This document shows positions 124 through 46,575 of a stretch of DNA of 46,929 nt, one piece after another. Numbering within the stretch: position 1 is the first letter of the stretch; each line of letters begins with the position of its first letter. The notes beneath the pieces are model-generated. The model worked only from the letters and a program-made list of their open reading frames with translations, did not search any database and had not been told where the DNA came from. The stretch lies in the IMG/VR virus record IMGVR_UViG_3300017716_001704, positions 1 to 46,929 of that record, one strand, 5' to 3'. The position numbers and the translations under genes were made by a program. The stretch comes from a virus. Taxonomy: Duplodnaviria; Caudoviricetes.

Positions 124-3100
124 CTGTAGCCCACATGCGGATAGCTTCTGCTATCACTTTACGTTGACCCTCAGTTTTTGCAAGTCGGTTGAGCATTTTG
201 TTCACGAACGCTGCATCACGGTTCAGCATGGCCTCCGCGATTGCCTTAGCAGCCTTGCCCGAGATGCCGAAGCTCGTCAGCGAGGCCACGCCGCGCTTGA
301 CCATAGCCGTCACGAAGCCGGGGCCGGGACGTCCGGTCGCGGTCGCGAGGGCTTCCATGGCGAGGCTAAGCTCCTCACCAATCGGGCCGTTGTCCTTGGG
401 CCTCTGCGCAGCCTTGCCGAGGTTTTCGAGTTCCGCACGCTGCGTACGACCGACAGTGCCGAGCGTGTCGGCAGTCTCTTGTCCGGCGACCTTGGCGATG
501 CGCCGCCCGGTGGCGGGCACGGTCAGGTCTTTGATGACGCCGACAGCGTCCGCCGGTGACTGCGCGGCCTTGCCAGCGATGGCTCCACGAGCGACAGCGC
601 CGAGAGGTTCCTGCGAGCCCGCCGTGGCAGCGCCGAACTCCGCTTCCGTCATGGTCATGACTTTCGAGGCGGCGTCGATAGCACGCTGGTTCTTGGACAT
701 GGACGCTTTGATGGCGTCGAGTTGGGCCTTGGCCGCACGCTTCAGTTCCAGCAGACGAGCGGCTTCCTTGTCGGACAGCGCCCGCTTGAAGGTGTCGCGC
801 TGGTCGCTGATCTTGCGTTGTGCAGATGTCGCACGTTCGGTCACGTCCCGCTTCGCCGCGGTGGCGTCGTCAGTGATACGTTGGGTCTGCTGCCGTACGT
901 CGTCGGCAATGCCCTCGCGTGTCGTACGAGCGGCAGCCGTTATGTCGGCAATCTCTTGCTGGATTTTCTTCACGTTCGTCATGGTCGTACGAACGGTGCG
1001 TACCAGCGCCTCGCCTTCCTTGCCAGCGAGTTTGATGATGGCGTCCGCGTTGCGGAGGATGCTGTTGGCGGCTTGCAGGGTCTGTGCGCCGTCCTTGGTC
1101 GTGGCCGCGATGGCTTGCAGAGCAGCGTCCTGCGCGCCCTGCTTGACAGCGAGACGTCCCAGAGCGCCGGGCTGCTGAGCCACAGCGACGTCGAGGTCAG
1201 CCGCGCCGGTCGCAGCGTTCTTGCCCGTGGCAGCCGCCCCCAGTTTACGAGCCTCCAGCCCGGCCTTGGTGGCAGCGAACACGTCGAGGTATTCTGACTT
1301 GTAGGCCGGATGCACTTCGCTGGCGTACTTGGTCAGCGCCCTGCCGATGTCTTTCAGGTTGTAGCGCACGCCTGCGACGTCCACGGGCTTGCTGAGCGCG
1401 CGGCGAAGGCTGTCCACATCGTCCAGTGTCAGCGTCATCGGCCCCGGCTCGCCCGCCTTGGCAGAGAAGCTGTCGATGGCCTTGTTGAGGCGGTCGAGTG
1501 CTTCGCCTTGCGGCAGCGTTTCAGCCTTGGCTTTCAGGACCGCGGTGATGGTCTTGGGGTCGTGCGGGAAATTCTTCTTCACCCAGCCCGACGGAAGCTC
1601 GACAGGCTTGTCGGCCATACCGCCGCTGTACTTGCCGGTGACAGGGTCTTTCACACCGCGGAAGGTGGCGGTGGTCTGCTTGTCGAGGTCCGCGAGCACG
1701 GCCTTGTCGGTCGCGATGCCTTCCGCGCGCTTCTGGAGCGTGCCGGACATGCGAGCGCCCGCAGCGTCGATCTTGGCCTCTTGCCCGGCGATCAGCGCGC
1801 CAGTCTCGTCGCGCACCATGCGCTTGGTCTGGTCGCCTGCCAGTGTGGCGGCGCGTGCCTGCTGCGAGGCAGTGTCGTCAATGCCTTGGGACTGCATGCG
1901 AGCCGCGTCAGCCGTACGACGGGCCGCAGCTTCGGCGCTGTCGTCAATGGAGCGTCCGACGGTTGCGGCCTTGGCCTGTGTCCGTGCGAGGTCGTCAGCG
2001 AGTTGGGCTTCACGTCCGCCGATGGCAGCTTCGCCACGGGCAGCAAGATCGTCCAGTGCGCCGGTGGCAGAGCGTGTGTCGCCCGTGCGCTCGACAGCGG
2101 TGCCGATGCGATCAGGCAGCGCGTTGTAGGTATCTTCCTCGCCCTTGCGGAACACCTGCGCAGCGTCTTTCTTGGCGCGCGACAGCTTGCCGAAAGCTTC
2201 AGCCGTGTCGTCACCGGCGACAGCGAGGATGTTGGCATCGACGCCGTTCGCAGCAACGTACTCGTCTACGCTCTTGCGGACTTCAGCGACGGGCAGTTTG
2301 AGGCGGCTGGAGATGCGGTTGACTTGCGCCACCGACAGCTTGAACTCCTCAGTGTCGCGGACGCGCTTCGGCTTGCCGTTCGGCAGCATTTCCACTTCGC
2401 CAGCGGCGTTCTTGACTTTCTTGCCGCCCTCAAGGGCACGCCCGACGCGCGGCACGATGATGTCGGCAGCCGGTTTGATGATGGCGTCACCAATGCCTTG
2501 CAGGGCCTTGCCGAAGATGGCGCTGTAGACTGCGTCCTCTGCGGCCTTGCCGGGGTCTGTCGGGTTCTCCAGCAGCGAGTGACCGCCAGCGAGGATCGCG
2601 GACTGCGCGCCGACGCCTTTCGTGGTGAGGCCCATGGGGAGCTTGATAGCACCGCTGGCCCGGCCAAGCAGCGCGCCGCCATAGCCGAAGCCCGCCACGT
2701 CGCCAACGGCGGAGGCGAGCGGCTGGTCCTTGCGAAGCTGTTCAGCCTGCTGCTGCGTACGGTCGAACTTCTGGAAGAAGTTCTCTTGGTCGTTGGTCGT
2801 CATCTCGGAAATGCCCGCGATGACAGCGTCGTCTACGGGTCCGAGGAGGTTGGTCGCTGCACGTCCGCTGGCCTGAAACGCTTGCGCCGCGCCGCCGCCG
2901 AAGTCGCTGCGCGCTTGGTCGCCGGTCTTGTTGCCGGTGGACTGATCGCCCATGATGCCCATGCGGCCCATGCCGACAAGGTTGGGCAGCCGGTCGAGGC
3001 CGTTTACGAAGTTGTCGAAGCCGGATTTCTCCGCCTGAACCTGTTCGATCTTCTGCGGGCCAGCGGGCTTAGCCACTGCCGTACGACGGGCGTGTGCTTC

Positions 3101-3181
3101 CGACATGACCTTGTTGATGGTCGCCGCGTCAGTCCCGTCGGGAAACTCCACGCGCAGACCGTTTGGACCCTCGACAATCAT
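89..3181 (-). CDS. Large internal virion / DNA ejection protein
   Basis: 1030 aa, Ala-rich and helical. Last of three genes after the tail genes, the position of podovirus ejection proteins. TAATG coupling at both ends. Confidence 0.7.
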   Translation of the reverse strand: MIVEGPNGLRVEFPDGTDAATINKVMSEAHARRTAVAKPAGPQKIEQVQAEKSGFDNFVNGLDRLPNLVGMGRMGIMGDQSTGNKTGDQARSDFGGGAAQAFQASGRAATNLLGPVDDAVIAGISEMTTNDQENFFQKFDRTQQQAEQLRKDQPLASAVGDVAGFGYGGALLGRASGAIKLPMGLTTKGVGAQSAILAGGHSLLENPTDPGKAAEDAVYSAIFGKALQGIGDAIIKPAADIIVPRVGRALEGGKKVKNAAGEVEMLPNGKPKRVRDTEEFKLSVAQVNRISSRLKLPVAEVRKSVDEYVAANGVDANILAVAGDDTAEAFGKLSRAKKDAAQVFRKGEEDTYNALPDRIGTAVERTGDTRSATGALDDLAARGEAAIGGREAQLADDLARTQAKAATVGRSIDDSAEAAARRTADAARMQSQGIDDTASQQARAATLAGDQTKRMVRDETGALIAGQEAKIDAAGARMSGTLQKRAEGIATDKAVLADLDKQTTATFRGVKDPVTGKYSGGMADKPVELPSGWVKKNFPHDPKTITAVLKAKAETLPQGEALDRLNKAIDSFSAKAGEPGPMTLTLDDVDSLRRALSKPVDVAGVRYNLKDIGRALTKYASEVHPAYKSEYLDVFAATKAGLEARKLGAAATGKNAATGAADLDVAVAQQPGALGRLAVKQGAQDAALQAIAATTKDGAQTLQAANSILRNADAIIKLAGKEGEALVRTVRTTMTNVKKIQQEIADITAAARTTREGIADDVRQQTQRITDDATAAKRDVTERATSAQRKISDQRDTFKRALSDKEAARLLELKRAAKAQLDAIKASMSKNQRAIDAASKVMTMTEAEFGAATAGSQEPLGAVARGAIAGKAAQSPADAVGVIKDLTVPATGRRIAKVAGQETADTLGTVGRTQRAELENLGKAAQRPKDNGPIGEELSLAMEALATATGRPGPGFVTAMVKRGVASLTSFGISGKAAKAIAEAMLNRDAAFVNKMLNRLAKTEGQRKVIAEAIRMWATGSAASSTANVR

Positions 3182-4443
3182 TAGTCAGTTCCCGGTGTCC
3201 ACTGGTAGACGCCGTCAGCCCGCTCTTGCAGGTTGCCCCCGGCGACGGGAGGCTGTTGTGTGGTAGCTCCGCCCGTGGGGGCGTTCGAGACGTCCTCGCG
3301 ACCGAGCCGCGACGGGTCAGCGAGGCGGGCTTCCGCCCAGCGCTGGAACTTGTCGATGGCTGCCCAACGAGCGCCGTACGAGCCGCCGCCGCCGAGCATG
3401 TCACGCCACATCTTTTTCTCGCCTTCGGTATCGAACAGGCGAGACGACATGCCGGGAGCGTTGATGATGTTCGTGAGGAGCATGGTCGTCGTGTCGTCAA
3501 TCGTACGACGCATTTCCTCTTTCTTGTCGCCGGTGAGTGAGCCGATGAACCGCCCGATGGGGTTGTCGCCCGTCCAGAGGTTCGAGATGACGTCGGTGTC
3601 GCTGTTCGGGATCGCGCCGGACTGCACAGCCGTATTCAGTTGGTTGCGCATGTCGTCAATGGTGCTGAACAGAGCCACCTCTTGCGCGGCAGCCTGTTCC
3701 GGCGTGGTCGCGCCGGGCTTGCCGGTGAGACGTTGCACGCCGAGCGCGCGGGTCGCTTCAGCGCTCGCCACAGACAGGCGGTGCGCGTCGTCGGCGGCGC
3801 GCTGGTCAACAGTGCTGAAGCCGGGGATGACGCCAGCCTTGTCGCGGTCGCCTTGGTTGATCGTGATCGGCTTGCCTTGGGCGTCGTACCCGCTGATCGT
3901 GCCGGTGACTTTCTCTTGGCCCATGAAGCCGTCGCGCATGGACTTGAAGAAAGTCGGCATGTCGGGGAACTGCTTCGCCATTTCGAGAAGCTGCGGGAAC
4001 GCCTGCGGGTTGATGCCCAGCGAGGCAGCCATGGACGGCGTGAAGCGCTGCGCGAGGTCAGCGACGTCCTTGGGGTTCAGAGCTTCCATAGCATCTAGGC
4101 CACGGAGCGCGGCGGCGCGCGTCTCGTCGCCAATCTTTTTGGTGGTGTCTACCTTCGTTTCGTCCGTGGTAGCCTTGGTCTGGTCGAGGGTCGCGGCCTG
4201 TTGCGCCAGTTCGCCGGGCTGCTTCTGAGCCTCGAACTGCGTCGTCTGCACCGTGCGCGCGGCGTCCGGGTCGCCAAACTCGACGCCCTTGGCGACAAGC
4301 GCGTTGCGAGCGTCGTTGACACGCTTCAGTTCAGCGTCCTTGTACGGGTCTTCAATCGCCCGACGGTCCGCGATGTAGTTCTGGTTGTTGCTTTCCTGCC
4401 GGGCCGCGCGGCCTGACCGAAAGTCGTCCATCACGTTGTACAT
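3181..4443 (-). CDS. Internal virion / DNA ejection protein
   Basis: 420 aa, middle gene of the ejection trio; assigned by synteny and composition. Confidence 0.65.
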   Translation of the reverse strand: MYNVMDDFRSGRAARQESNNQNYIADRRAIEDPYKDAELKRVNDARNALVAKGVEFGDPDAARTVQTTQFEAQKQPGELAQQAATLDQTKATTDETKVDTTKKIGDETRAAALRGLDAMEALNPKDVADLAQRFTPSMAASLGINPQAFPQLLEMAKQFPDMPTFFKSMRDGFMGQEKVTGTISGYDAQGKPITINQGDRDKAGVIPGFSTVDQRAADDAHRLSVASAEATRALGVQRLTGKPGATTPEQAAAQEVALFSTIDDMRNQLNTAVQSGAIPNSDTDVISNLWTGDNPIGRFIGSLTGDKKEEMRRTIDDTTTMLLTNIINAPGMSSRLFDTEGEKKMWRDMLGGGGSYGARWAAIDKFQRWAEARLADPSRLGREDVSNAPTGGATTQQPPVAGGNLQERADGVYQWTPGTD

Positions 4444-4446
4444 GGC

Positions 4447-5079
4447 TTACCCTTTCGGCGGAACGCCGACGCCAGTCGTAGCGACCACGCCGGTCTGTGT
4501 TTTGGGAGCGCCGCGCATGTCGCCAATCGCGCCTGCGATGTTTGATGCCGCACCGGCGTAGGCTTTCGACGTGGCATCGCCAGCGGCCATCTGCGCGTTC
4601 GCTGCGCCAGCCGCGCCGCCCGTGTACACGTTGGCAAGCGTCTGGTCGGCCTGCATGCCCATGCCGGACTGCTGGTTAAGCTGCTGGATGTAGTTGTTGA
4701 AATACTGTTGCCCGAGGCCCGAGCCGAAGCGTTGAGTAGCCTTGAGGGTCGCGCCGGACTTCAGCATGCCGCGAGCCGCGGCGTTGCTGTTGAGGGCGTC
4801 GATACCGCCCTTCATCTGCGTACGATAGCCTGCGCTGTCGAGGTAGTTCTGGAAGCCTGCTTGGGCCGCTTCCGGGTTCGGTCCGAGGCCGAGGAGGTTC
4901 TGCGCCTGCCCGAAGGCGGCTTGTCCGCCGGGGCTGTACGTGGACTTCAAGCCCGTGTTGGCCTCGACGCGTTTGACACCGGCCTCTTGCGCCGCAGCCG
5001 CCTTTTTCGCGGCCTTGTTGGCAGACATGCCCCCGAGGAGCGATCCGCCGACGCCTACTGCTGCTGCGATCCAAGCCAT
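4447..5079 (-). CDS. DNA ejection (pilot) protein, P22 gp7-like
   Basis: MAWIAAAVGVGGSLLGG N-terminus; 'GY..Q...G..A.NS.AAARG.L.SGATLKA' pattern; Gly/Ala/Gln-rich. Confidence 0.75.
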   Translation of the reverse strand: MAWIAAAVGVGGSLLGGMSANKAAKKAAAAQEAGVKRVEANTGLKSTYSPGGQAAFGQAQNLLGLGPNPEAAQAGFQNYLDSAGYRTQMKGGIDALNSNAAARGMLKSGATLKATQRFGSGLGQQYFNNYIQQLNQQSGMGMQADQTLANVYTGGAAGAANAQMAAGDATSKAYAGAASNIAGAIGDMRGAPKTQTGVVATTGVGVPPKG

Positions 5080-5104
5080 TTTGGGTGCCCTTTCAATGCG
5101 CTAG

Positions 5105-5133
5105 CCCCGCCGTACGTCTTAGGTACGGCGGGG
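5105..5133 (-). terminator. Intergenic hairpin (11-bp stem), possible weak terminator or processing site
   Basis: CCCCGCCGTAC-7nt-GTACGGCGGGG with no clear U-tract. Confidence 0.4.
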
Positions 5134-5144
5134 TGATGCGCAAT

Positions 5145-5399
5145 TTAGCCAGCCACCTTCGGTGCCTGCTTACCCGCCGGGGTCGTGGTGACGAGGCGGA
5201 GAAGAATGTTGACGGCTGCACCGGCCACACCGAGGCCACCGATCAGGGCGTCGATATTCTGGGACAGCATTTCCTGCGTGACGCCGACCGCCTGCGATGC
5301 AGGGATCACGCCAAGCGCGACGAGAACGCCCACCAGCGCCAGCACGGCGTTGATAAGGATGGTCCGGTAGCCTTTGAGGCTGGCAAGAAATTCGGTCAT
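5145..5399 (-). CDS. Small two-TM membrane protein, holin-like
   Basis: 84 aa from ATG 5399. KGYRT followed by two hydrophobic segments and a basic C-terminus. Confidence 0.6.
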   Translation of the reverse strand: MTEFLASLKGYRTILINAVLALVGVLVALGVIPASQAVGVTQEMLSQNIDALIGGLGVAGAAVNILLRLVTTTPAGKQAPKVAG

Positions 5400-5471
5400 G
5401 GCTTTGCTCGCGCTGGGGTGAAATACGTTATCACCCTTGTAAGCTGGCCCGGCCCTCCACGTCAAGCCCGT

Positions 5472-6212
5472 TTACGCGAAGGCGACAATCGAAAATGCGG
5501 CGCTCGTGAGGTTTTGGGCAGACGAGGTGAACACATTCAGTTCGAAGTAATCGCCCGGTGTGACTGCCAAAATGCCGGTGTTTAGTATCTGGCGATCAGC
5601 GCCGGAGGTCAGGGTGCTGTCACCGACGTTCGGCTGGCCGGGGTAGAACGTGACCGCGCCGTTTTTCCAGATTTGGGCGAACTTGTTGCCGGTGGTGTTT
5701 GTCCACAGGATTTGGGCAGACAGCATGACACGTGTAACGCCAGCCGGGATGGTGATCCGTGTCGGTTGCCCAGCGATGTCGATGAACGCCGCGTCGTCGT
5801 ACGTCTCAGCCGTCATGGTGACGCGCGTGTCAGTTGACGCTGCGATAGCCTGTGTGCTCAGCCGGGTAGACATGCCACAGCGCCCGCTGCCGCTTGCTAC
5901 CGCAGTGACGTGCCCTTTGTCGTCCACAGTGATGTTGGGGTTCGTGTAGGTTCCCGGCGTCACGCCGCTGTTGGCGTGAGCGATGGGAGCTATGACGCCA
6001 CCAAGCTGGCCTCCGCCGGTGATGGGCGAGGTGGTCGTGATGGTCTTGGCGGCGAGCGCTTCAGCGTCCGTCGTCAGGCCGGAGTTGTTCTGCCGCTGGC
6101 GCTGCCAGTTCCGCAGGAACGTGTCGGTTGCCGTACCGTCAGGCTTGACGATGACGGTGTCCTTCGTGATGGGGTCCGAGCCGGTAGCCCGGAAGATCGT
6201 ACGACGGGCCAT
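5472..6212 (-). CDS. Tail fibre/spike-like protein
   Basis: ATG 6212 is coupled by TAATG. Contains the 'SGVTPGTY..ITVD.KG.VT' fibre repeat and a beta-rich C-terminal head. Confidence 0.65.
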   Translation of the reverse strand: MARRTIFRATGSDPITKDTVIVKPDGTATDTFLRNWQRQRQNNSGLTTDAEALAAKTITTTSPITGGGQLGGVIAPIAHANSGVTPGTYTNPNITVDDKGHVTAVASGSGRCGMSTRLSTQAIAASTDTRVTMTAETYDDAAFIDIAGQPTRITIPAGVTRVMLSAQILWTNTTGNKFAQIWKNGAVTFYPGQPNVGDSTLTSGADRQILNTGILAVTPGDYFELNVFTSSAQNLTSAAFSIVAFA

Positions 6213-7024: not shown

Positions 7025-7036
7025 GGCCTAGCTCCC

Positions 7037-10419: not shown

Positions 10420-10422
10420 GGC

Positions 10423-23602: not shown

Positions 23603-24315
23603 GGGGCTGGCCTATGGAAATGATGATTTCGGTTTGTGCCACGAGGCGGCGTGGGGGTCAAGGCTTTCGTGCAAGTCAAGCCCCTGTAGCGGATAAAATC
23701 GACTTAGCCGCTGCGAGGGCTAAGTGTCAGAAGTTTGTATGCGTATTTCTGACATGATAATGCTTTGCCGCCCCGTGTATGTTAGCACCCAGCTCCAAAA
23801 ATTGATATATTCCGTGCCGCCCCGTTACACAGAACAAACCACTCAGCACCGAAGCACCCCCCCCTATGTCCCAGAGCGGCACAGCCGCCGTGGCACGGAG
23901 CTTGCATAGTGACCCACATTGGCACAGCGACCATGCCGCTACGTCACTCCGTGTCCCACTATGACACAGTGATAATGCAATATGCAATATGCATGCCATG
24001 TAACATAGCCGCGCAGTGGCATGGTTCTTGCTAATGCACAATGTGGCCCAGTGTATTACATTGGCACGTACCATTTCGCTACGCCGCTAAGGTACGAGTG
24101 TACCACAGTGGGGCGATCCATTTCGGCACAGCCGGGGTCGAGTGGGCGCGTGTCCTGTAGTGAGACAACCTGATAAGGTGTCCCATAAGTAAATGAAATA
24201 GGGACATATTATCACGTTATCATAACCTAGGTTCGGAGCGGCCTAGCCACCCGGAACACATCGTTCCCCTTTCCATCGTACGACACGAAGCGGCCAAGTG
24301 TCCCAATTACACACA

Positions 24316-24715: not shown

Positions 24716-25489
24716 ATGCTGCAACCTGACCTGCCTGTGTACCCCGTTCCGGCCCTCTGCCCGCCGGTTCCGGCCCTGATCGCCCGCAAGGCTGATCGCC
24801 CGACCGAAGAACAGTACGGCGATTTTCAGGCTGCCTATGACTACTTCAACAAGGCCCTTTTCGGTGGCAAGCTGCCGCAGTGCCTTATCACGCTGGTTCG
24901 CTCGCGCCGGTTCCGTGGCTACTTCCTGACGGAGGGCTTTATCTCCGCCGATGGCGAGGGCCGGAAAACCGATGAAATCGCGATGAACCCGGAAAGCTTT
25001 GAGGGCCGGACCGATAAGGCCATCCTGTCAACGCTGGTTCACGAGATGTGCCACCTGCAACAGTTCCACTTTGGCAAGCCGTCACCGGGCGGCTACCACA
25101 ACAAGCAGTGGGGCGACTACATGAAAGCCGTCGGCCTGTACCCGTCCAACACTGGCCTGCTTATGGGCAAGGAAACGGGCGTTCAGATGACGCACTATGT
25201 GCTTGAGGGTGAGGCGTTCTGCAAGGCGGCTGACGCACTGATTGCCCAAGGGTGGGCGATCCGTTGGCGCACACCGCAGGACATGGCGCTGAGCGCTGCT
25301 GGCGGCTTGTCCGGGTTCGTGCCCCCGAGCATGCCCCTGCTGATGGGCAAGCGCGCAACGGCTAAGCGTCAGTCCAAGACGCGTTACACATGCCCGGTTA
25401 GCGGCGTAGCGGCTTGGGGCAAGCCCGGCCTGACGCTCTACACGGCGGCAGGTGCAGCGCTGATGCTGGCAATGATTGAGGAGGGCTGA
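24716..25489 (+). CDS. SprT-like zinc metalloprotease domain protein
   Basis: 'YDYFN..LF.G.LP.C.ITL', 'STLVHEMCHL' (HExxH), 'YHNK.W...M..VGL.P'; GGAGA RBS. Confidence 0.85.
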   Translation: MLQPDLPVYPVPALCPPVPALIARKADRPTEEQYGDFQAAYDYFNKALFGGKLPQCLITLVRSRRFRGYFLTEGFISADGEGRKTDEIAMNPESFEGRTDKAILSTLVHEMCHLQQFHFGKPSPGGYHNKQWGDYMKAVGLYPSNTGLLMGKETGVQMTHYVLEGEAFCKAADALIAQGWAIRWRTPQDMALSAAGGLSGFVPPSMPLLMGKRATAKRQSKTRYTCPVSGVAAWGKPGLTLYTAAGAALMLAMIEEG

Positions 25490-25520: not shown

Positions 25521-25563
25521 TCCCGTGTCTTTCCATCGTACGACATACAACGGAGTGGCTATC

Positions 25564-28755: not shown

Positions 28756-29294
28756 TCATGGGACTGCCACGGAGCGGCACGACATGGGCGGCTAACTGGC
28801 TGACGTACGGCGGCGAGGTGTGCGTACACGACCCGCTGTACTACACGCACTATAACGACTGGGATGCGTCGTACGACAGCGTCTCATGCACGGGTATTTA
28901 CGACTGGCCCGAGTTCATCGCTGTGCAGGAATGCCCTGTGCTCGTGCTCCACAGGCCCGTCGGTGAGGTGCGCGCGAGCCTGATGGACTTCGACACGCAC
29001 CGGCAAGGCGCATGGCTGGACTGGGACGCGGATCGTAGGCTGGCCGATATCACAGCGCCCAACGTGCTGCATGTGAACTGGTCCGCCATGTTCACGCCCT
29101 CCAAGGCGGCGCTGATCTGGCGCTTCCTGCACATGCCATCGCAGTTTGATGCCGTACGACACGCGCAGTTGGTTCGCATGCGGATACAGCCCGCGTTCAC
29201 TCACCCCGAGGACGCCGACATGCAGTTGCATTCCCGGCTTATGGCTGAGTTGCGTGCTCGCAAGGCGCGTGATAAGGCGGAGGCTGGAGGCTAG
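28740..29294 (+). CDS. Sulfotransferase-fold (P-loop) protein
   Basis: GTG 28740 after GGAGGA; 'GLPRSGTTW.AN.L......HDP' and 'VLHRP..EV..SL' motifs. Confidence 0.65.
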   Translation: MLKRIVMGLPRSGTTWAANWLTYGGEVCVHDPLYYTHYNDWDASYDSVSCTGIYDWPEFIAVQECPVLVLHRPVGEVRASLMDFDTHRQGAWLDWDADRRLADITAPNVLHVNWSAMFTPSKAALIWRFLHMPSQFDAVRHAQLVRMRIQPAFTHPEDADMQLHSRLMAELRARKARDKAEAGG

Positions 29295-29297: not shown

Positions 29298-29942
29298 ATG
29301 GGCAGAGCGCACAGCAAAGCACACATCCGCTGGCCCGCAGAGATTGCGGAGCATGGGCGCACAATTCTGGACTGGGCACTGACAAACAGCGCTGGCGATA
29401 TGGAGCGCTCGCCAATGACGGCGGCGTGTGCCCTGATCCTGTCCAACCTGCGCGAGGATATCAAGGAAACCACGGAGGCCAAGCCTGACGGTCGTACGGT
29501 GAAATACGGCGTACGAATGGCGGCAGTGCATCCACAGACCGGCGACTTCCTCGCCTTCTACCCGTGGCAGTTCGACGTCGCGGGCATGGACAGCGTGTGG
29601 CGCTTCGTGAGCGAGAACGGCTGGCAGCTATTCGACGGGCTTGACGTGATGCCTCTGGAGCTAACGCTGGCCGACCTGATCGACCGTACGAACACAGCCC
29701 GCGTGGCTATGTCCCGGCGCGCTGACGGCATCGCCATCATACGCGTGCGGTTCCAGTGGCAGAAGAAACGTGAGCGGCGCAATCTGCGGCGTGACGCAGA
29801 CCCGGACGATGTCAAGGTGTCATGGGATACGTGCGATGCACAGCTTAACGTGTGGATCGGGCCGAACGAAGCGGCCAAGGAACTGGAAGCGAAAGAGATT
29901 GCCGTACGACATCCTCTGTCGGGGCTGACACAACAGGCGTAG
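29298..29942 (+). CDS. Hypothetical protein
   Basis: GGAGG RBS, 214 aa. Confidence 0.7.
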   Translation: MGRAHSKAHIRWPAEIAEHGRTILDWALTNSAGDMERSPMTAACALILSNLREDIKETTEAKPDGRTVKYGVRMAAVHPQTGDFLAFYPWQFDVAGMDSVWRFVSENGWQLFDGLDVMPLELTLADLIDRTNTARVAMSRRADGIAIIRVRFQWQKKRERRNLRRDADPDDVKVSWDTCDAQLNVWIGPNEAAKELEAKEIAVRHPLSGLTQQA

Positions 29943-30146: not shown

Positions 30147-30277
30147 TACGCATCCTGCCCGTGCGCGACCTAGAGGGAATGTTCCTAGGGTTCAGCGTCG
30201 AGGGGCCGGACGGCACGACATTCCACAAGACACTGTTCGCCGCCTTTAAGGCGTACGACATACGGAGGGCAGCATGA
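30143..30277 (+). CDS. Small hypothetical protein
   Basis: GTGA and ATGA overlaps on either side. Confidence 0.5.
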   Translation: MIRILPVRDLEGMFLGFSVEGPDGTTFHKTLFAAFKAYDIRRAA

Positions 30278-35969: not shown

Positions 35970-36236
35970 ATGGCCGACATCGGTCACAACTCAGTCGGCA
36001 TGCAGCAGGCCGCTATCGACAAGCTGCGCTCGCTCGCCGCCAACATCGTGGACTGTGAAGACCGCGCTGCTGAAGTGGCCGAGGAGAAGCGTGCCTACTT
36101 CAAGGAAGCCAAGTCCGCGGGCTATGACGCTGCTGCCCTGCGGCAGGCCATATCGTTCCTCAAGGACGAGGCCGGTCGTACGGAGCAAGAGCAAATCCGC
36201 GACCTGTATATCGAGGCGCTGCGCGAGCGGGGCTAG
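35970..36236 (+). CDS. gapR: GapR/DUF2312-family nucleoid-associated protein
   Basis: 'IGHNS', 'LRS....I...E.......E....F.EAK..GYD...LRQ.I' and 'LY..AL' signature. Confidence 0.8.
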   Translation: MADIGHNSVGMQQAAIDKLRSLAANIVDCEDRAAEVAEEKRAYFKEAKSAGYDAAALRQAISFLKDEAGRTEQEQIRDLYIEALRERG

Positions 36237-36319: not shown

Positions 36320-36461
36320 AATACACCTGCGAAAGCCATGACCCTTAGTCTCCGTTGCGGGAGTTGGGACATGGCGGAGGGCGGGACCGGAGGCTGGGGT
36401 AAGTCGGCGCAGCGCAACTGTTCGCCGTAGGCTCCAGCCTCTTATGTTTCGGGAGGGACAT

Positions 36462-36644
36462 ATGCCGCGCACTGAGTTCGAGACGTTCTTCGAAGACACC
36501 TTCAACCCCCTGCTGGAAAAGCTTGCGACGTACGACAGCGGTGTCGTGTTCAGCGATGGTGGCACGATAAATGAAGCGAGTTGGGACCGCAAAGCGGCTT
36601 ATCTCGTGTGGATGATCGCCAACGGTATGGATGCTCCAGAATGA
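36462..36644 (+). CDS. Hypothetical protein
   Basis: GGAGG RBS; ATGA overlap with the polymerase gene. Confidence 0.65.
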   Translation: MPRTEFETFFEDTFNPLLEKLATYDSGVVFSDGGTINEASWDRKAAYLVWMIANGMDAPE

Positions 36645-38587: not shown

Positions 38588-38880
38588 CCATCTTCGACAA
38601 GGTCATGAAGCGCGTCCTGATAAGGGACATGGGCTGGAAGACGCCGTGCTGGATGTGGACTGGTCCGCACTCCGGCAAGGGCCGTGGCGGTGGCTATGGC
38701 AGGATGTGCCTCGACGGACAGACTGTTGCCGTCCACCTCGTCATGTTCACACATTTCTTCGGCTTCATACCGGGCAAGAAACAAGTCGATCACTTGTGCA
38801 AGGTCCGGCTTTGCTGTAACCCTGACCACCTCGAACTGACTACGCACAAGCAGAACATGCGCCGGAGGGACGCCAAATGA
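38566..38880 (+). CDS. HNH endonuclease
   Basis: 'CW.WTG','GYG','DHLC..R.CCNP.HLE..T...N'. Confidence 0.9.
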   Translation: MAETRRLTIFDKVMKRVLIRDMGWKTPCWMWTGPHSGKGRGGGYGRMCLDGQTVAVHLVMFTHFFGFIPGKKQVDHLCKVRLCCNPDHLELTTHKQNMRRRDAK

Positions 38881-39122
38881 TCGAGACTACCCCGTCACGC
38901 CGCGGCTTCCTAAAGCTGGTCGGCATGGGCGTGGGTGTCGCGGCAACTGCGCCGTACGTCAAACTCCTACCCGTGGCGGCTGCGCCGGTGGTGGAGGCCG
39001 CACCTGTAGTGGCCGTGGCGGCGTCGGGCAGTCAGTTTATCGGCGCGCAAGAGTACGCGAACATTATGCTTAAGCTCGTCAAGGAAAACCTGATGATGGC
39101 ACAGTACGTGGTGAAACAATGA
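38877..39122 (+). CDS. Small protein: twin-arginine signal plus capsid N-arm-like C-terminus
   Basis: SRRGFLK followed by a hydrophobic stretch; GGAGG RBS; ATGA overlaps at both ends. Confidence 0.75.
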   Translation: MIETTPSRRGFLKLVGMGVGVAATAPYVKLLPVAAAPVVEAAPVVAVAASGSQFIGAQEYANIMLKLVKENLMMAQYVVKQ

Positions 39123-39835: not shown

Positions 39836-40158
39836 CTGAGAAGCAGGTCCGCGACCCTGTTGTGGCGTGGCACAAGACCCACGGCGGGCTGCACGAGCGC
39901 AACCACAAGGGCAAGGGTGCGGCGACCGGCTGGCCTGACGACAGGTTTTACTTCGGTTCCGGCCACTGCTACATGGTGGAGTTCAAGTCGAGCGATGGCC
40001 CGACTAGTGCAAGGCAAGAGTACATCATCAATCTTCTGAAGGCCGCAGGGCATGACGTGGACATCCACAACGAGCCAAACGAAGCGATTAGCGCCCTCGC
40101 ACAACGTCTGGATACCTTCGGCGGGGCAGGCATCGGCGGTCGAACACCTCATCCGTAA
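39820..40158 (+). CDS. VRR-NUC domain nuclease
   Basis: GTG 39820; 'E..V','GWPD','VEFK.......Q' motifs. Confidence 0.8.
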   Translation: MSRRLTEKQVRDPVVAWHKTHGGLHERNHKGKGAATGWPDDRFYFGSGHCYMVEFKSSDGPTSARQEYIINLLKAAGHDVDIHNEPNEAISALAQRLDTFGGAGIGGRTPHP

Positions 40159-42211
40159 TGGAGCAGCGGTACTATGGGCGGACGTCGGCGCGGGCAAGAC
40201 TTCTATATCGTTGACGGCATTCACGGAGCTTCAGAAAGCTGGTGTCGCCAAGCGTGGCTTGGTGATGGCGACGGTTCGTATCTGCCAACTTACATGGAAG
40301 CAGGAAGCGGCGAAGTGGTCGCACACGAAGCACCTGAAAATCGAGTTCCTGCACGGCCCCAACAAGGACAAGCTGCTAGCCGACGGTATGCGGTTGCAAC
40401 CCGGTCTAGGCGGTGTGGACTTGTTTCTCATCAACTACGAGGGCTTGCCATGGCTATGCGGCAAGTACGCTGGCAAGGGCGGGCTGCCCTTTGACACCAT
40501 CATCGCGGACGAACTGACCAAGCTCAAGAACGCCACCGGCATCCGCTTCAAGGCTCTGAAGAAAGCCACCATTCGTACGGCGCGCAAGTGGGGCCTGACC
40601 GGCACGCCAGCGCCGAACGGCTACCTCGACCTGTTCGGGCAGTTCCTCTGGATCGACGGCGGCGCATCGCTAGGCCCGTTCTACAGCCACTACCGCGACA
40701 ACTATTTCCAGCCTGACTTTGACGGCTTCAACTACAAGATACAGAAGGGCGGCGAGGCCCGCATCAAAGAGCGTATCAAGAACATCGTCTACCGGCTGGA
40801 GTACACCGACCTTCCGGCGAGCCGCGACAACGACATCTTCATCGAACTGGGCAGCAAGGCACGTAAGACGTACGACACAATGCGGAAGGAGATGCTGATC
40901 CAGATCGAGGGCAGCGTCATCACCGCGGGCAACGCGGCGGCTGTGTATGCCAAGCTGAAGCAGATGGCGAACGGCGCAGTCTACACCGCCGAGATACCGG
41001 GCAAGAAACGCGAGTACGTCGTCATCCACGAGGACAAGATCGACGCGCTGGTGGAGTTGGTAGAGAGCTTGCAAGGCCAACCCTTGCTCGTGGCCTACCA
41101 GTACCACCACGACCTTGAACGCATCCAGCAGCGGCTTAAGAAAGAGTTCGGCTGGGACGTCCCGTATATGGGCAGCGGTGTGTCCGAGAAAGACGCCATC
41201 CGCCTGCAAGACGAGTGGAACGCCAACAAGCTGCCGGTCATGCTCTGCCAGCCGCAGTCGGTCGGCCACGGCCTTAACTTCCAAGAGGGCGGCGCAGGAC
41301 ACCTGTGCTGGTTCTCGTCAGACTTCAACCTTGAGACGTACAACCAGTTCATCGGTCGCATCCGTCGTAAGGGCAACACAAGCGAGCGCGTCGTCATTCA
41401 CCGGCTTATCGTCAAGGACAGTATTGACGAGGTCGTGTTCGCGGCGTTAGAAGACAAGGATACCACGCAGGTCCGTCTCTTGCAGGGACTGCGACAGGTG
41501 CTCCACGGTGAGCCAACAACGCGCCCGACGGCTTCGGGTACTGATACGGAGGACGACATGACCCAACTTCGCAGACTGCCAGCACAGGGCGCGGCTCCGC
41601 CGCCTCCGGCACAGCCTACACAACAACGCGCCGCCGCACCGGCAGCGCCCGCAGCGGCTCCCGCTCCGCCTCCGGCACGCGTCGTACCGCGCGGCTGGGG
41701 CCAGCAGGCTTCCGCCACACAAGCCGCGCCGCCTGCCAACCCGCAGGCCGCTGCCATCCAAGGCAAGCTGCAAGGCGCTGGTTCGTACGTCGCACCGGCG
41801 GCTGAGCCGGAAGTCGAGCAGGAAGTCGAGGAGGTGTCTGTTGCTGACGCTGCTGCCGACCACATCAACGCCGCTATGGGGCTCGCTATCCAGAGTGACG
41901 CTGACGGCGATCCGAACACACCACCGGCTCCGCCAGTGGAAACTGCCGCCCCCGCACCCAAGGCAACACGCGCACGTCGTACGGCAGCAGCTACGCCTAG
42001 CGCGCCGAACGCCATGGACATGCACGCCCACGCAGAAAAGACTGCTACCACGGCACTGCCGCCGGTCGCCGTCAACGCACAGGCCATCCGTCCGGCGTCG
42101 GAAGGCGAGGCGCAAGTGACCATCAACTTCTACGGCTCGCCGTCGGCGGTCGCACAAGCCATGATGACGCTGATAACGTCCTTCAAGGACATGACGCACG
42201 ATTACTCTTAG
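40052..42211 (+). CDS. SNF2-family helicase with long Pro/Ala-rich C-terminal extension
   Basis: 'GAGKT','INYE','IADE...LKN','LTGTP.PN','GHGLNFQ','Q..GRI.R.G'. Confidence 0.88.
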   Translation: MTWTSTTSQTKRLAPSHNVWIPSAGQASAVEHLIRNGAAVLWADVGAGKTSISLTAFTELQKAGVAKRGLVMATVRICQLTWKQEAAKWSHTKHLKIEFLHGPNKDKLLADGMRLQPGLGGVDLFLINYEGLPWLCGKYAGKGGLPFDTIIADELTKLKNATGIRFKALKKATIRTARKWGLTGTPAPNGYLDLFGQFLWIDGGASLGPFYSHYRDNYFQPDFDGFNYKIQKGGEARIKERIKNIVYRLEYTDLPASRDNDIFIELGSKARKTYDTMRKEMLIQIEGSVITAGNAAAVYAKLKQMANGAVYTAEIPGKKREYVVIHEDKIDALVELVESLQGQPLLVAYQYHHDLERIQQRLKKEFGWDVPYMGSGVSEKDAIRLQDEWNANKLPVMLCQPQSVGHGLNFQEGGAGHLCWFSSDFNLETYNQFIGRIRRKGNTSERVVIHRLIVKDSIDEVVFAALEDKDTTQVRLLQGLRQVLHGEPTTRPTASGTDTEDDMTQLRRLPAQGAAPPPPAQPTQQRAAAPAAPAAAPAPPPARVVPRGWGQQASATQAAPPANPQAAAIQGKLQGAGSYVAPAAEPEVEQEVEEVSVADAAADHINAAMGLAIQSDADGDPNTPPAPPVETAAPAPKATRARRTAAATPSAPNAMDMHAHAEKTATTALPPVAVNAQAIRPASEGEAQVTINFYGSPSAVAQAMMTLITSFKDMTHDYS

Positions 42212-42216
42212 CACTA

Positions 42217-42245
42217 TTGACCACGCCTCCACCGGCGCGTAACTT
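42217..42245 (+). promoter_or_regulatory. Putative promoter for the lysis genes
   Basis: TTGACC-N17-TAACTT in the intergenic gap. Confidence 0.6.
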
Positions 42246-42279
42246 GGGGCCTTCCTAACCGGGGAGGCCCCTTTTGTTT
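42246..42279 (+). terminator. Intrinsic terminator overlapping the endolysin RBS
   Basis: GGGGCCTTCC/GGGAGGCCCC stem followed by TTTTGTTT. Confidence 0.75.
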
Positions 42280-42747
42280 GCCACTGAACACTTCCGCATG
42301 GCTGAGTTCCTGAAATCCGACACCGCGCTGCGGCTAGGCATTCCGAACATGCCGAGCAAAGAGCACGAGAAGAACCTCCGTCGTACGATGAAGTACATGG
42401 AGGTCGTACGGCAGATGGGCCACGGCCCTATCAAGATCACCTCCGGCTACCGCTGCCCTGTCCTGAACAAGGCCGTCGGCGGCGTGCCTGACAGCGACCA
42501 CGCGCTAGGCTTCGCCTGTGACTTTCTGTTCCCCAAGTGGGCCACGCGCTTCGCCGCGCCGGAGCTTGCCACGGCCCTAGTGGGGCATCCTGACCTGTGG
42601 GTGCCCTTCGACCAGTTCATTCTGGAGGAAGACCGCGGCGTCATGCACATCAGCTTTCACCCCCGCCACCGCCGCCAGATCAAGACGCAGGTCGGCGGGC
42701 CGGGCTCGCCAATCATAGAGGGTATCAAATGGTCTGGAGTGACATAG
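42274..42747 (+). CDS. Endolysin, peptidase M15 family
   Basis: 'ITSGYRC..LN.AVGG...S.H..G.A.D' and 'HISF'; TTG start after GGGGAGG. Confidence 0.88.
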   Translation: MFATEHFRMAEFLKSDTALRLGIPNMPSKEHEKNLRRTMKYMEVVRQMGHGPIKITSGYRCPVLNKAVGGVPDSDHALGFACDFLFPKWATRFAAPELATALVGHPDLWVPFDQFILEEDRGVMHISFHPRHRRQIKTQVGGPGSPIIEGIKWSGVT

Positions 42748-42992
42748 TCGTACGCAGCGTCATCGCTGCCATCATCGCCCTAGCGGGCTTCCTCATCCTG
42801 CGCGCCGCGCGCACCGCAGGTAAGACTGAGGCCGAACTGCGAGCACAACTGGCCGGGTCTAAGACCAAGGCCGAGATAGCGGACAAGTCCAATGAAAGCG
42901 CTGAAGCTGCTGCTGCCCGCAGCGATCCTAGCCTTCACGATGTTCCTGACATCGTGCGCGGCGATGCCCTCCCCAGTTGGCTTAAACGCTGA
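42729..42992 (+). CDS. Inner-membrane spanin (Rz-like)
   Basis: N-terminal TM helix then a short helical region; directly follows the endolysin. Confidence 0.65.
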   Translation: MVWSDIVVRSVIAAIIALAGFLILRAARTAGKTEAELRAQLAGSKTKAEIADKSNESAEAAAARSDPSLHDVPDIVRGDALPSWLKR

Positions 42993-43269
42993 CGACTACC
43001 TCACGAAGTCTGCCGTACGGCGCATGTACCCGCCGATCCTGCTGGCCGACGGTGACGTGCTGACGTACGGCTCTGCCTGTCAGATCGTGGAGCACAACGT
43101 CACCTTCTATTGCGAAAACCCCGGCAGTCGCCCGCCGGGGTTTCCAGTCCGTCTGTGTGAGGCCGATCCTACTTCCGTTTGCGAGCAGGTTTTGGGGTCG
43201 CCCGCTTCTTCCGCCGCGCCGGTTTCTTCGCCACCTCCGCGCGCCCTTTCGGTGTCAGTTCGAAGCTAG
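42892..43269 (+). CDS. Outer-membrane spanin lipoprotein (Rz1-like)
   Basis: Signal peptide with lipobox LTSC; overlaps the Rz-like gene in another frame. Confidence 0.65.
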   Translation: MKALKLLLPAAILAFTMFLTSCAAMPSPVGLNADDYLTKSAVRRMYPPILLADGDVLTYGSACQIVEHNVTFYCENPGSRPPGFPVRLCEADPTSVCEQVLGSPASSAAPVSSPPPRALSVSVRS

Positions 43270-43879
43270 GCTCGTCGGCCACGACCCGTACGTCATAGTC
43301 GCCGCTGTAGAACTTCGCCACGTCGGCGGGGCTTACGCCGCACGTCGGCAGCTTGTTGAACGACAGAGGCTGAGCGTGCTTGTGACCGCGCGCCTTCGCC
43401 AGATCGTCCAGCCCCTGTTCGACCCACTGTGAGCCGTGCAGGAACAGCTTGTCCTTGTACCACGTCGCTATGGCAGAGCGGTCGCCGCCCGGTGAAGCAA
43501 GGTCCACGCCAATGTGAAGCTCCTCGGGGAACCGTGAGCCACGGCCCGGCGACATGCCCTCTGCCTCAAGCTCCTCTTGCAGCAGCGCCAGAGCGCGCCA
43601 CGCCAGAGCGGCGGAGTGGCGGACCTTGTACTCCTCGCCGTTGTACGTGACGTACTCGAACGTGCCGCGGTCAACGACGTGTCGTACGATGCAGTCTGCG
43701 TGGTCAGACGAGTTGCCCCGTGACCAGTGCAGGGGCAGGCCGGGGTTATGCTTCTCGTTTCCGATGAAGCTGTGCTCTGCGACGGCTGCCAGAGCCGCCG
43801 GGAAGTAGTCCAGCAGCCCCGCCGCCATGGGCGTGCGCTTTCGCTGGGCCGTATCTTGGGAAATGTAGTTCTCGGTCAT
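43169..43879 (-). CDS. DUF5664-type (dATP/dGTP diphosphohydrolase-like) domain protein with basic tail
   Basis: ATG 43879 after GGAGG; 'P.AL..VA..S..G..KH......W........D...RH ... H.A..AWRALA.LQ'. Confidence 0.7.
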   Translation of the reverse strand: MTENYISQDTAQRKRTPMAAGLLDYFPAALAAVAEHSFIGNEKHNPGLPLHWSRGNSSDHADCIVRHVVDRGTFEYVTYNGEEYKVRHSAALAWRALALLQEELEAEGMSPGRGSRFPEELHIGVDLASPGGDRSAIATWYKDKLFLHGSQWVEQGLDDLAKARGHKHAQPLSFNKLPTCGVSPADVAKFYSGDYDVRVVADEPSFELTPKGRAEVAKKPARRKKRATPKPARKRK

Positions 43880-43932
43880 TAGAGCCTCCGTGGTGCGTTT
43901 GGACCGTTTATGGGACGTGGGTAGCAGACAGG

Positions 43933-44634
43933 TTAGGCGATGCAGTTGTACGGCGACGTGACGCCGAAGTTGTAGACCGGCAGCGGCTTGGCAAATGCCT
44001 TGGCGAGCACAGCATAGGCGTCGAGCAGGTTCAGCCATTCTTTCTTCGCCGTACGCCAGTGTTTCTCCTCGAACAGACTTGGCGGCAGGTCGGGGATGGG
44101 TTCGAAGCCCTCCATGCCGTACCACGGCTGGTCAGCCGGACGCATGACGAAGGTGCGCTCGTTGGCGATGATGCGGCGGTCGTACGCGCGAACGATGTCG
44201 CTCTCGACCAGAGGCACGTCGATGTCGTAGACGCGCATGGCGAGCCGCAGCGCCGCGCTGATCGGGCGGGCCATGGCGCGGAACTCCGGGCAGCGGTCCT
44301 TGATAGGCGTGCGCAGGTCGCCGGTGAAGGCTTCCTCCGCGTCGTGGAACAGAGCGTCGAGGCACAGTACCGGATCGTGTGTGGCGTCCCAGATCGCGAC
44401 CGACAGGGCGACAGAGTGCTGTGCTACGCTGTAGGGGTAGATGGCCGCGCCGCCGTAGCGGTTGATCGTGGCGAGGTGGTGCGCGATGTCTTCCAGAAAG
44501 TAGGGGTTCGTTTCGGCGCTGCCCTCGTTGTAGTAGAACGCCGCGCCGCTATAGGTCTGGCTCCAGTAGTTCGCGTCGGCTGGTTTTTTCTGATCGGCAT
44601 CGAGCTTGTCGATAAGAGTTTTCGTATCCGTCAC
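43933..44634 (-). CDS. HD-domain phosphohydrolase (YfdR/YfbR-like 5'-deoxynucleotidase)
   Basis: 'EDIAH.L....RY.G.....YSVAQHS','ALFHDA.EA..GD..TP.K'; GTG 44634 after GGGAGG. Confidence 0.85.
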   Translation of the reverse strand: MTDTKTLIDKLDADQKKPADANYWSQTYSGAAFYYNEGSAETNPYFLEDIAHHLATINRYGGAAIYPYSVAQHSVALSVAIWDATHDPVLCLDALFHDAEEAFTGDLRTPIKDRCPEFRAMARPISAALRLAMRVYDIDVPLVESDIVRAYDRRIIANERTFVMRPADQPWYGMEGFEPIPDLPPSLFEEKHWRTAKKEWLNLLDAYAVLAKAFAKPLPVYNFGVTSPYNCIA

Positions 44635-44792
44635 CGTGGCCTCCCCGGCTTGGGGTTCGCGTGGTACTCGCGCCCCTGTTTCAGAAACCACCGTGTCCGG
44701 CGGCGCGAGTAGTTCGCTTGCAATTTCTTTGCCGCTGCGCGGAACGCCGCTAGCTCCTCCGGGGTTAGCTCATCAGGAGGAGTATCAAGCAT
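44631..44792 (-). CDS. Small hypothetical protein (53 aa, absent from the ORF track)
   Basis: MLDTPPDELTPEELAAFRAAAKKLQANYSRRRTRWFLKQGREYHANPKPGRPR read by hand; overlaps both neighbours. Confidence 0.5.
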   Translation of the reverse strand: MLDTPPDELTPEELAAFRAAAKKLQANYSRRRTRWFLKQGREYHANPKPGRPR

Positions 44793-46575
44793 GCCATTTT
44801 CCATCGAACACCGTCAGCATTTGCCGCTTACCGTTCTCGTGAATGACGCAGAAGGAAATCGACCAATTCCCCGGCGAGCCCATGGCGTACTCAAGCTCAA
44901 GTACCATGACCCCGACCTGCCATGCGCCGTTGATTATGCCCGCCCCGTGTCCGTGGCCTATGACCACCTTACGCCCGAGGTTCGACAGGTTCTTGAGGCT
45001 GCCACGCGAGCCGCCCGGACCCTGATCGCCATGGAAGCCAAGCTCGATGCCGCCGCCGTCGTTCTTGCAGACGACGTACGACTGGCCGGGCGCGAGCCAC
45101 AGCGTTTCTTTGATGCCGCCGCCATTGATATACTCCACCGCGCACTGCATCGCGTTGAAGCTTACGTCCTGCCGGAGCGCCCGGAGATACGCTAGGTGGA
45201 TGTGTCCGCAGAACTCTGCGTTGTCTAGGTCGAAGCGCCAGTCCACCTCGCGCAGGTAGCGTTCGAAGTGGCGGTCGTGGTTCGAGTTGACGATGACGTC
45301 CTCGACACCCTTGCGGTGGCCGGACTTGAGGAAGTTAAGCGTCGAGGCGTACTCCGTCTCGATACTCTTGCCCTTCACCACACGCAGCGAGAACATTTTG
45401 TAGGGGTCGCGGCGGTTGTGGTGGCCGAACTCGAAATCCGCAAGGTCGTGGTAGACCTGCCGCTTCGGGTTCAGCGTATCGAGCGCGCCGTGTGCGCCCC
45501 AGCACAGGTCGCGTATCTGCTGTGTGAGGTGTATCTCGTGGATGTCGCCCCAGATGACGCTGTCGGTCCCTTTGGGCCGTACGACACGGTCAGCGTAGAA
45601 CGCGATGGGGCCGTCCGGCGTCACGTCGTAGATGCCGCCAGCATTGTCGGTGTTCAACTGCCGGACCCACCAATGGCCCTTGTCGTTCACCTCCACGAGG
45701 AGCCCGCCGTAGATGTGGTCGAACTCCGCCTTCTGCCCGGCCTTGCGCTGGATGTAGTTGCGCTTAGTGACGGTCCCGGTCGTGTACTGGAGCTTCGCCG
45801 CGTCGGAAGGCGACGTCGGGATGCTGAGCATGTGCTGCCGTACGTGCGGGAAGATGGAGGAGTTGCGGAAGTTGTAGTTGGCGAGGCCGGACAGCGGCTC
45901 GCTCGCGGTCGGCCAGTTGTTGAAGTTGCCGTTCCAGATCAGGCCCTTGCCAAGCTGGATCATGGCGTCAGCCACGAAGGGCTCGATACGGTCGTCGTAC
46001 CACTGGTCGTCGCCGTCGCTGGCCTTTTTCGAGCCGCGCTTGCCGGAGCCGTCGCGGGTCTTGCTGTACGTGAACGTGGACACCATGAGTTCCGCGCCAT
46101 AGTGGTCGGCGCAGGTCTGCAAGGCCAGCCACGTCGGCTCGTGTAGCAGCGTGTTGTTCTGGGCGCAGGTGAGGATGTAGCGCGCGATCTTGCCCTTCTC
46201 AGGCAGCGGTCGTACGACAGGCTTCGTGGCGTCGTTCGAGCCTGTCACCGTAGCGGCCACGCCGCGCTGTTCCGCAGCCTTCAGACGTTTCGAAAACGCG
46301 GCAGCAGAGATACCTGCGGCATCCGCAGCGGCTGCAATCGTGCCGAAGATCGAGAGTTGGTTCTGCGCGTCACGCAGTTCCTGATCGGTCAGCTTTACCC
46401 CGCCAGCCTTGGGACGGTCGGGGCGTATCTTGATTTCAGGGAAATGTTCGCGGGCTTCGGCTAGCCGCTTGCGCATGTAGCGAAGGGTGATGCCCAACTC
46501 CGCCGCAGCGTCTTCTGCTTTTTCGTGCTTGTTGTAGGAACTAACCGTGCGCTGTAGGAGTTTCTTAGTGGTCAC
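44785..46575 (-). CDS. Metallophosphoesterase/nuclease with N-terminal HTH, T5 A1-like
   Basis: 'GDIH','HDL.D','SNHD','HGD.G','GHGH' metal-binding motifs; 'AQNNT' and 'NYIQRKAGQKA' recalled from A1-like proteins. Confidence 0.7.
   Translation of the reverse strand: MTTKKLLQRTVSSYNKHEKAEDAAAELGITLRYMRKRLAEAREHFPEIKIRPDRPKAGGVKLTDQELRDAQNQLSIFGTIAAAADAAGISAAAFSKRLKAAEQRGVAATVTGSNDATKPVVRPLPEKGKIARYILTCAQNNTLLHEPTWLALQTCADHYGAELMVSTFTYSKTRDGSGKRGSKKASDGDDQWYDDRIEPFVADAMIQLGKGLIWNGNFNNWPTASEPLSGLANYNFRNSSIFPHVRQHMLSIPTSPSDAAKLQYTTGTVTKRNYIQRKAGQKAEFDHIYGGLLVEVNDKGHWWVRQLNTDNAGGIYDVTPDGPIAFYADRVVRPKGTDSVIWGDIHEIHLTQQIRDLCWGAHGALDTLNPKRQVYHDLADFEFGHHNRRDPYKMFSLRVVKGKSIETEYASTLNFLKSGHRKGVEDVIVNSNHDRHFERYLREVDWRFDLDNAEFCGHIHLAYLRALRQDVSFNAMQCAVEYINGGGIKETLWLAPGQSYVVCKNDGGGIELGFHGDQGPGGSRGSLKNLSNLGRKVVIGHGHGAGIINGAWQVGVMVLELEYAMGSPGNWSISFCVIHENGKRQMLTVFDGKWHA

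Follow-up and report, generated by a model that had tools for sequence, protein, structure and literature searches.

A dispersed CGTACG palindrome in a podovirus-type phage genome and an SprT-like protein as its candidate reader

The genome and its CGTACG sites

The IMG/VR virus record IMGVR_UViG_3300017716_001704 (positions 1 to 46,929; the whole of this stretch is referred to below as the window) is a podovirus-type phage genome of 46,929 bp, with a guanine plus cytosine (GC) content of 62.0% and matching 123-bp ends, through which the six-base palindrome CGTACG is repeated 108 times. Its gene set includes a P22-like portal and coat, a family A polymerase, a primase, an SNF2 helicase, and GapR-like, HD and dGTP-diphosphohydrolase genes. 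The first early gene (24716..25489, + strand) encodes an SprT-like zinc metalloprotease of 257 amino acids, which is the likely reader of the palindrome. The phage is lytic. A scan of 72 open reading frames (ORFs) found no methyltransferase, integrase or repressor, the sole methyltransferase label being a weak partial PHROG match on the helicase; this agrees with a preliminary description of the DNA, made from its letters, which had seen no methyltransferase gene. No cultured close relative turned up: a megablast of the left half of the genome against 50,697 phage records gave no match, and the portal and polymerase searches gave, among the matches listed, identities of at most 35% and 38%, respectively. 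A primase scan of viral contigs found nothing.

The dispersed sites (443..46218, strand-neutral) share the consensus TNNGY-CGTACG-RCNNA, with 11 perfect GTCGTACGAC and 31 GYCGTACGRC occurrences. The preliminary description had counted about 108 sites by eye and listed 11 perfect ten-base forms; exact counting returned 108 sites, from 443 to 46211, and the 11 GTCGTACGAC precisely where they had been placed. Its expectation of about 16 CGTACG was too low, as an order-2 Markov model gives 30.5; the same model expects 0.17 GTCGTACGAC. For codon-level nulls we took 59 coding sequences (CDS) and applied four types of shuffle, 300 times each. The 95 sites in these CDS compare with means of 24.2 for synonymous shuffling within genes, 21.6 for genome-wide synonymous shuffling, 29.9 for synonymous shuffling with the next base kept and 20.7 for shuffled codon order, and the highest value in any shuffle was 43; the palindrome is thus present at about fourfold the number that chance would give with these proteins. 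The word takes up 95 of its 157 synonymous opportunities and is found in all three reading frames (35/35/25), and the GTA and CGA codons that it recruits are indeed uncommon outside the sites, at 8.6% of valine and 3.1% of arginine codons.

Site density in the window is 2.3 per kb, or about one per 430 bp, and 102 of the 108 sites lie within CDS, the coding fraction being 0.94. The peak previously noted in the early region stands as a count (30 sites in 24.3-32 kb), but is partly due to a greater supply of protein-encodable sites there (5.8 versus 3.3 per kb); the share of encodable sites used is equally high in replication genes (24/33) and early genes (26/39). Spacing is random overall (coefficient of variation (CV) 0.98, null 0.98), with gaps below 100 bp slightly few (15 versus 21.9, p 0.04), and a test for helical phasing of the window sites revealed none. 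The recognition unit is wider than the ten-base form: it is a 16-bp palindrome with a strict CGTACG core and soft flank preferences for G at -2, T or C at -1 and T at -5. Among 441 sites pooled from four genomes, a change at any one of the first five core positions abolishes the excess. Spaced dyads of the DriD type consist of the half-sites ACGAC and GTCGT with a spacer between them; in neither orientation was any spacer of 1-15 bases enriched, the excess being limited to the palindrome with zero gap.

When the motif was tested in related phages, it proved to be kept in three complete relatives, G002 (107 sites), G003 (128) and G005 (98), and lost in a fourth, G006. Considering only positions at which the word could still be encoded, G002 retains 55 of 61 window sites (control-word mean 0.55, with 10 of 202 control words doing as well), G003 41 of 50 (mean 0.50, 12 of 151 doing as well), G005 16 of 23 (mean 0.44, 4 of 47 doing as well) and G006, which has 5 CGTACG against 23 expected, 0 of 15. 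Trees of virion genes and of replication genes both nest G006 within the CGTACG clade with a support of 1.0; it is a nested relative that lost the word. The codon-shuffle excess and this conservation support the earlier suggestion that selection acts on the DNA: the CGTACG feature is genuine and under selection. In another relative the word is CTTTAAAG instead (14 versus 0.2 expected in L098 and 13 versus 0.1 in L256, which are the same phage), and the more distant G425 has 38 copies of it in 42 kb. A 14-base scan of viral contigs yielded 65 loci, one of them enriched (L237). G416 (L255, 1-16612), a phage of another lineage that came from the motif scan as 1 of 65 loci, has 32 CGTACG in 16.6 kb, spaced more evenly than random (CV 0.55, p 0.0006); the fragment covers 44% of its genome, with the early region outside it. 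The enriched asymmetric words of G008, G009, G418 and G426 are clustered short-period repeats and not dispersed sites.

Phages purge short palindromes, and the window lacks 20 other six-base palindromes, including CGATCG (0 versus 29.6 expected), along with CCWGG (0 versus 141) and nearly all GANTC (1 versus 120); it purges twenty short palindromes yet hoards one. Thirty six-base palindromes are absent from G003 and 34 from G005. GCGWCGC, TCGSCGA, CTCGAAG and CATCAAG are likewise missing from the window. The avoided words may reveal restriction motifs of the host. Such purging could in principle have left the CGTACG excess as a functionless by-product of restriction avoidance, or of biased repair. 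However, the excess survives the codon nulls, the flanks are informative to five bases on each side, conservation exceeds that of control words, and other relatives that avoid palindromes are without the word; the by-product explanation is largely refuted, and we regard it as extremely improbable.

SprT-like proteins and their words

The SprT-like protein of the window matches Pfam PF10263 (E 6e-10; 39.4 bits against a curated cut-off of 25.6; ORF residues 43-144), and alignments place its HExxH zinc-binding motif at H109, E110 and H113 (25040..25054, + strand). The motif is intact in the window, G002 and G005, and degenerate in G003 and G006. The protein ends in a basic, zinc-ribbon-like tail, KRQSKTRYTCP...AWGK (25352..25450, + strand), which is the predicted DNA-reading part. 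Across 35 aligned homologs, which were chosen for carrying HExxH, C226 and K236 are invariant, and C226, C229, C243 and C246 are each kept at 90% or more; the tail in the window retains only the first of these cysteines, C226. Two non-coding, strand-neutral sites lie on either side of the gene, one 439 bp upstream (24272..24287, core at 24277), which is a candidate ancestral operator, and one directly downstream (25532..25547, core at 25537). Both read TTTCC-ATCGTACGAC, and the word ATCGTACG flanks the gene here. The nearest upstream site is at 439 bp in the window, 144 in G002, 49 in G003 and 600 in G005.

In a set of 20 genomes and fragments, one type of SprT (type A) was found only in the four CGTACG genomes and in G006, whose protein has no HExxH and an altered tail, and a second (type B) only in the two CTTTAAAG genomes. 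Neither type was found in eleven other genomes of the family (three of them incomplete), in Caulobacter phage Jess A or in the G416 fragment. Six named genomes with SprT homologs were also examined, and five of these had an enriched word of their own: GTTTAAAC in R5C (9 versus 0.3 expected), GTGTAAAC in Floof (16 versus 0.4) and VroomVroom (18 versus 0.7), and CCTGTGGA in OP947159 (14 versus 1.4) and MW202777 (13 versus 1.6).

For a wider survey we took the best 80 viral-contig loci per SprT subfamily and dropped L256, loci below 5 kb and those duplicated in their last 70 residues, leaving 59 type-A and 55 type-B loci. Type-B loci with QxTR[ML] tails are enriched in GTKTAAAC (336 versus 36), significantly so in 37 of 48 loci as against 1 of 173 SprT-free control loci; they fall into 12 gene-content clusters, 10 of which have a significant locus. 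TYLLK tails go with CTTTAAAG (28 versus 1, in both of two loci), a word also seen in four control loci that are, however, short portal fragments, and a TRYLK tail with GTGTACAC (6 versus 0.2). Among type-A loci, SKRTKY tails accompany CCTGTGGA in three of four cases, and the QGKRAKY tail of L330 (1-20597) accompanies CCTAGG, the densest word met, at 60 versus 13 in 20 kb. D.SKVK tails go with ATCGTACG, at a pooled 51 versus 8.6, a count that is not independent because ATCGTACG was chosen from that same pool. The excess is weaker for SKTK[FY] tails (pooled 29 versus 8.8), and the word is depleted in 119 control loci (18 versus 38.4). In the six loci individually enriched in ATCGTACG the flank consensus is TGCAT-CGTACG, which matches the window in having T at -5 and at -1.

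Type-A loci in unrelated phages, including these six, have 0-2 genes in common with the window, and the pairing of SprT with a word spans host phyla. ATCGTACG lies within about 400 bp upstream of the type-A SprT gene in 20 of 30 loci against 2.2 expected (10 of 14 versus 1.3 and 10 of 16 versus 0.9 in the two sets), counting only loci that have one or more sites and sufficient DNA upstream of the gene, with gene starts approximated. On these comparisons of sequence, related words lie next to SprT-like genes or go along with them in unrelated phages, and the enriched word changes with the SprT tail. No published link between SprT-like proteins and a DNA word was found in the open literature, subscription journals being largely uncovered by the search.

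Some further iterated words were encountered. VroomVroom (L284, an Arthrobacter phage, OQ938592) has six copies of TTCACGTGAA and twelve of TCACGTGAAA, which resemble the parS consensus and are a possible second iterated site. A portal-bearing region of the Astrobacterium formosum genome (L180) has GTTTAAAC at 4 versus 0.1, with no SprT match in the 21.8 kb covered. Enriched palindromes without an SprT match in the DNA covered were also seen in L042 (GAGCTC, 25 versus 5.3) and L010 (CTCGAG, 16 versus 1.8).

Coating, transcription control and other candidate readers

The preliminary description had proposed a recognition code for a DNA-binding protein that it left unnamed. The proposal is supported, self-marking or protection being a possible purpose, and the comparisons point to a phage-coded reader, the product of the SprT-like first early gene. 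We consider it quite probable that this protein binds the CGTACG sites directly; its basic zinc-ribbon-like tail would likely read the core as a dimer. By default, type-A SprT would use a CGTACG-core palindrome as an operator beside its own gene, and in the clade of the window this operator would have spread genome-wide, to its present density. Being made first, the protein would coat the genome at intervals of about 430 bp and would likely obstruct or cleave host proteins loading onto it. Given binding, we put the chances of a shielding role at about even; for the reading as a whole, in which the 108 palindromes would be docking sites for an SprT-like protein that coats and shields phage DNA, our judgment tips slightly in favor.

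Coating and shielding are favored over promoter control because the window sites follow coding length and not gene starts, near which they are not enriched (19 versus 17.5 expected). The main rival keeps SprT as the reader and gives it a job in transcription control, as an operator- or stoperator-type repressor, or a roadblock, with the protease domain as a switch or relic; its purpose would be the timing of early genes or the exclusion of related phages that superinfect. The sites directly upstream of type-A SprT genes would fit such a job, as would the 10 of 18 VroomVroom GTGTAAAC sites that are intergenic (read by hand), the dead protease that G003 combines with full site density, and the precedent of stoperators as described in the accessible part of PMC9283540. 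We nevertheless think it rather unlikely, in that the window sites are enriched neither between genes nor at gene starts, fill replication and virion genes, and occur in a genome with no integrase or repressor among the ORFs scanned; HExxH is, moreover, invariant in the 35 aligned homologs, subject to their selection for having it.

Several observations weigh against the docking and shielding reading itself. G003 has the most sites of all, yet its HExxH is degenerate, which argues against cleavage as the function selected there; because 128 sites are kept with a broken motif, cutting may be dispensable. Most type-A loci are without a genome-wide word, and CGTACG is strongly enriched, among the 59, only in the two relatives of the window. 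Mel-JY33, the sixth of the named SprT genomes, has no clear genome-wide word (CGTACG 22 versus 28, ATCGTACG 8 versus 2.2). Many of the surveyed loci are kin, 29 of the 48 type-B loci forming one cluster, and in type B sites upstream of the gene are not in excess (9 of 46 versus 10.7 expected). Enriched palindromes also occur without an SprT match: none was found in the 44% of G416 covered, despite its 32 CGTACG, and G423 (GGATCC, 76 versus 25) and G417 (L038; GTTAAC, 14 versus 1.1) have none in the DNA covered. Finally, four more genes share the distribution of the word within the clade, as each of the four CGTACG genomes has them and G006 does not: those for a P-loop protein at 28758, a 158-residue protein at 30274, the GapR-like protein and the endolysin.

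Two of these genes, together with a 214-residue orphan (29298..29942, + strand) upstream of the primase module, were weighed as alternative phage-coded readers. The orphan was the first suspect; its conserved basic segment, RVxMSR, takes another form in the CTTTAAAG phage and is degenerate in G006, where the gene is duplicated and degenerate. Its family, in 14 clusters, is nevertheless found upstream of the primase across the phage family, word-less members included, and diverges strongly in G425, although that genome also has CTTTAAAG; we set it aside because its occurrence does not track the word. Its structural model (predicted local distance difference test score 72.9; best VIA Z 4.4) drew no match from PDB or BFVD in a Foldseek search at E 0.001, and the protein had no PDB sequence match and no useful Atlas match. 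The GapR-like gene (35970..36236, + strand; PF10073) and the P-loop gene at 28758 are both missing in G006, a point in their favor, but GapR-like genes are also present in word-less genomes, and the P-loop gene was not found in G425. None of the three explains why unrelated phages have sites upstream of their SprT genes, and a reader among them appears very improbable.

The P-loop protein (28758-29294) is sulfotransferase-like, is confined to the four CGTACG genomes, lies among virion genes in G005 and has its cultured homologs mostly in Pseudomonas phages. At 43169-46575 (- strand), a dGTP/dATP diphosphohydrolase, a YfbR-like HD phosphohydrolase and a 596-residue protein with a helix-turn-helix-like N-terminus are clustered; no modified-base synthase was found among the ORFs scanned. 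A small ORF within the replication genes (38877-39122) resembles, in its 27-30 C-terminal residues, the beginning of the coat protein, the match being 50-55% in relatives.

The reader could also be a host protein, such as a defence sensor, methyltransferase or regulator, that is lured or satisfied by the word, with SprT merely marking phages of the same host. We infer an alphaproteobacterial host because homologs of the GapR-like protein, a clue to the host and not a favored reader, are mostly in phages of Alphaproteobacteria, and because Jess A avoids GANTC as the window does (1 versus 96 expected). The even spacing of the word in G416, of another lineage, and the fact that G005, unlike G006, has early genes and avoided words in common with the window would suit a host reader. 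Against this, Jess A has the same GANTC avoidance without CGTACG enrichment (12 versus 16 expected), the CTTTAAAG phage avoids similar words but uses another tag, and the SprT-word pairing crosses host phyla. The word is also rare in sampled hosts. Among 401 genomes from the class of a Brevundimonas bin, a sample that may not include the true host, the highest frequency of GTCGTACGAC is 18 per 4.6 Mb, and in five genomes checked for six-base words CGTACG occurs at 0.08-0.29 per kb as against the 2.3 of the window (G255 and G466 served in host tallies only); CTTTAAAG occurs at no more than about 0.07 per kb in 251 order-level genomes versus 0.9 in the phages. A host reader is, in our assessment, improbable. 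With the word so rare in the 401 genomes sampled from the likely host class, it is probably not a background feature of the host, and the HIP1-like, host-wide reading raised by the preliminary description likewise found no sampled host genome with the word at phage density.

Should the reader indeed be the SprT-like protein, a phage gene that is widespread but unexplained would acquire a target on DNA, together with a small code linking tail to word. A bolder extension, which we offer tentatively, is that SprT might be a programmable, sequence-specific, DNA-tethered protease that patrols only the phage's own DNA and degrades host proteins of restriction, silencing or sensing that land there. 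Its short tail would set the palindrome, the genome would have been recoded so that this word recurs every few hundred bases, and tail and word would co-evolve as a code, with CGTACG, GTKTAAAC, CTTTAAAG, GTGTACAC, CCTGTGGA and CCTAGG as its entries. A protease aimed by DNA sequence, if true, would be a new counter-defence principle as well as a compact programmable DNA-binding module.

Comparison with known systems

SPRTN/Spartan is a DNA-dependent metalloprotease, according to the accessible text of PMC5127644, and the protein of the window shares with it and with phage SprT-like proteases an SprT-like HExxH domain ahead of a small C-terminal domain for which DNA binding is predicted. The accessible parts of accounts of SPRTN and phage SprT-like proteins propose crosslink repair or cleavage of host proteins, the latter suggested for phage SprT peptidases in PMC7824862, and mention no sequence-specific site (bioRxiv 2025.05.26.655371, PMC7824862), although the former refers to unshown repeats near its SprT gene. 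The present case differs from these accounts, as far as their accessible text goes, in that a tail-specific palindrome travels with the gene.

The operator and stoperator arrays of Cluster A mycobacteriophages, as described in the accessible portions of PMC9283540 and PMC6550527, consist of asymmetric sites for a monomeric immunity repressor. They offer a parallel in layout, with many sites for one phage-coded protein spread genome-wide, within genes and beside promoters, and the window, with nearly all its sites in CDS, has such a layout. Unlike stoperators, the site of the window is palindromic and present in about 100 copies, its likely reader has a metalloprotease domain, and neither a repressor nor an integrase was found among the 72 ORFs.

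HIP1 (GCGATCGC) of cyanobacteria, described in the accessible text of PMC5861425, is a host word spread over the whole chromosome and is not known to have a function. Like it, the CGTACG word is a hyper-abundant short palindrome that lies in genes, in all frames, beyond codon and protein constraints, and is kept by selection. However, the CGATCG core of HIP1 is among the words absent from the window, and a host-wide abundance of CGTACG comparable to that of HIP1 was not found in the 401 class-level genomes or the five checked for the six-base word, samples that may not include the true host. Unlike HIP1, CGTACG appears confined to phage genomes, is rare in the sampled hosts and switches between relatives, and this hyper-iterated palindrome gains a candidate reader, which HIP1 still lacks.

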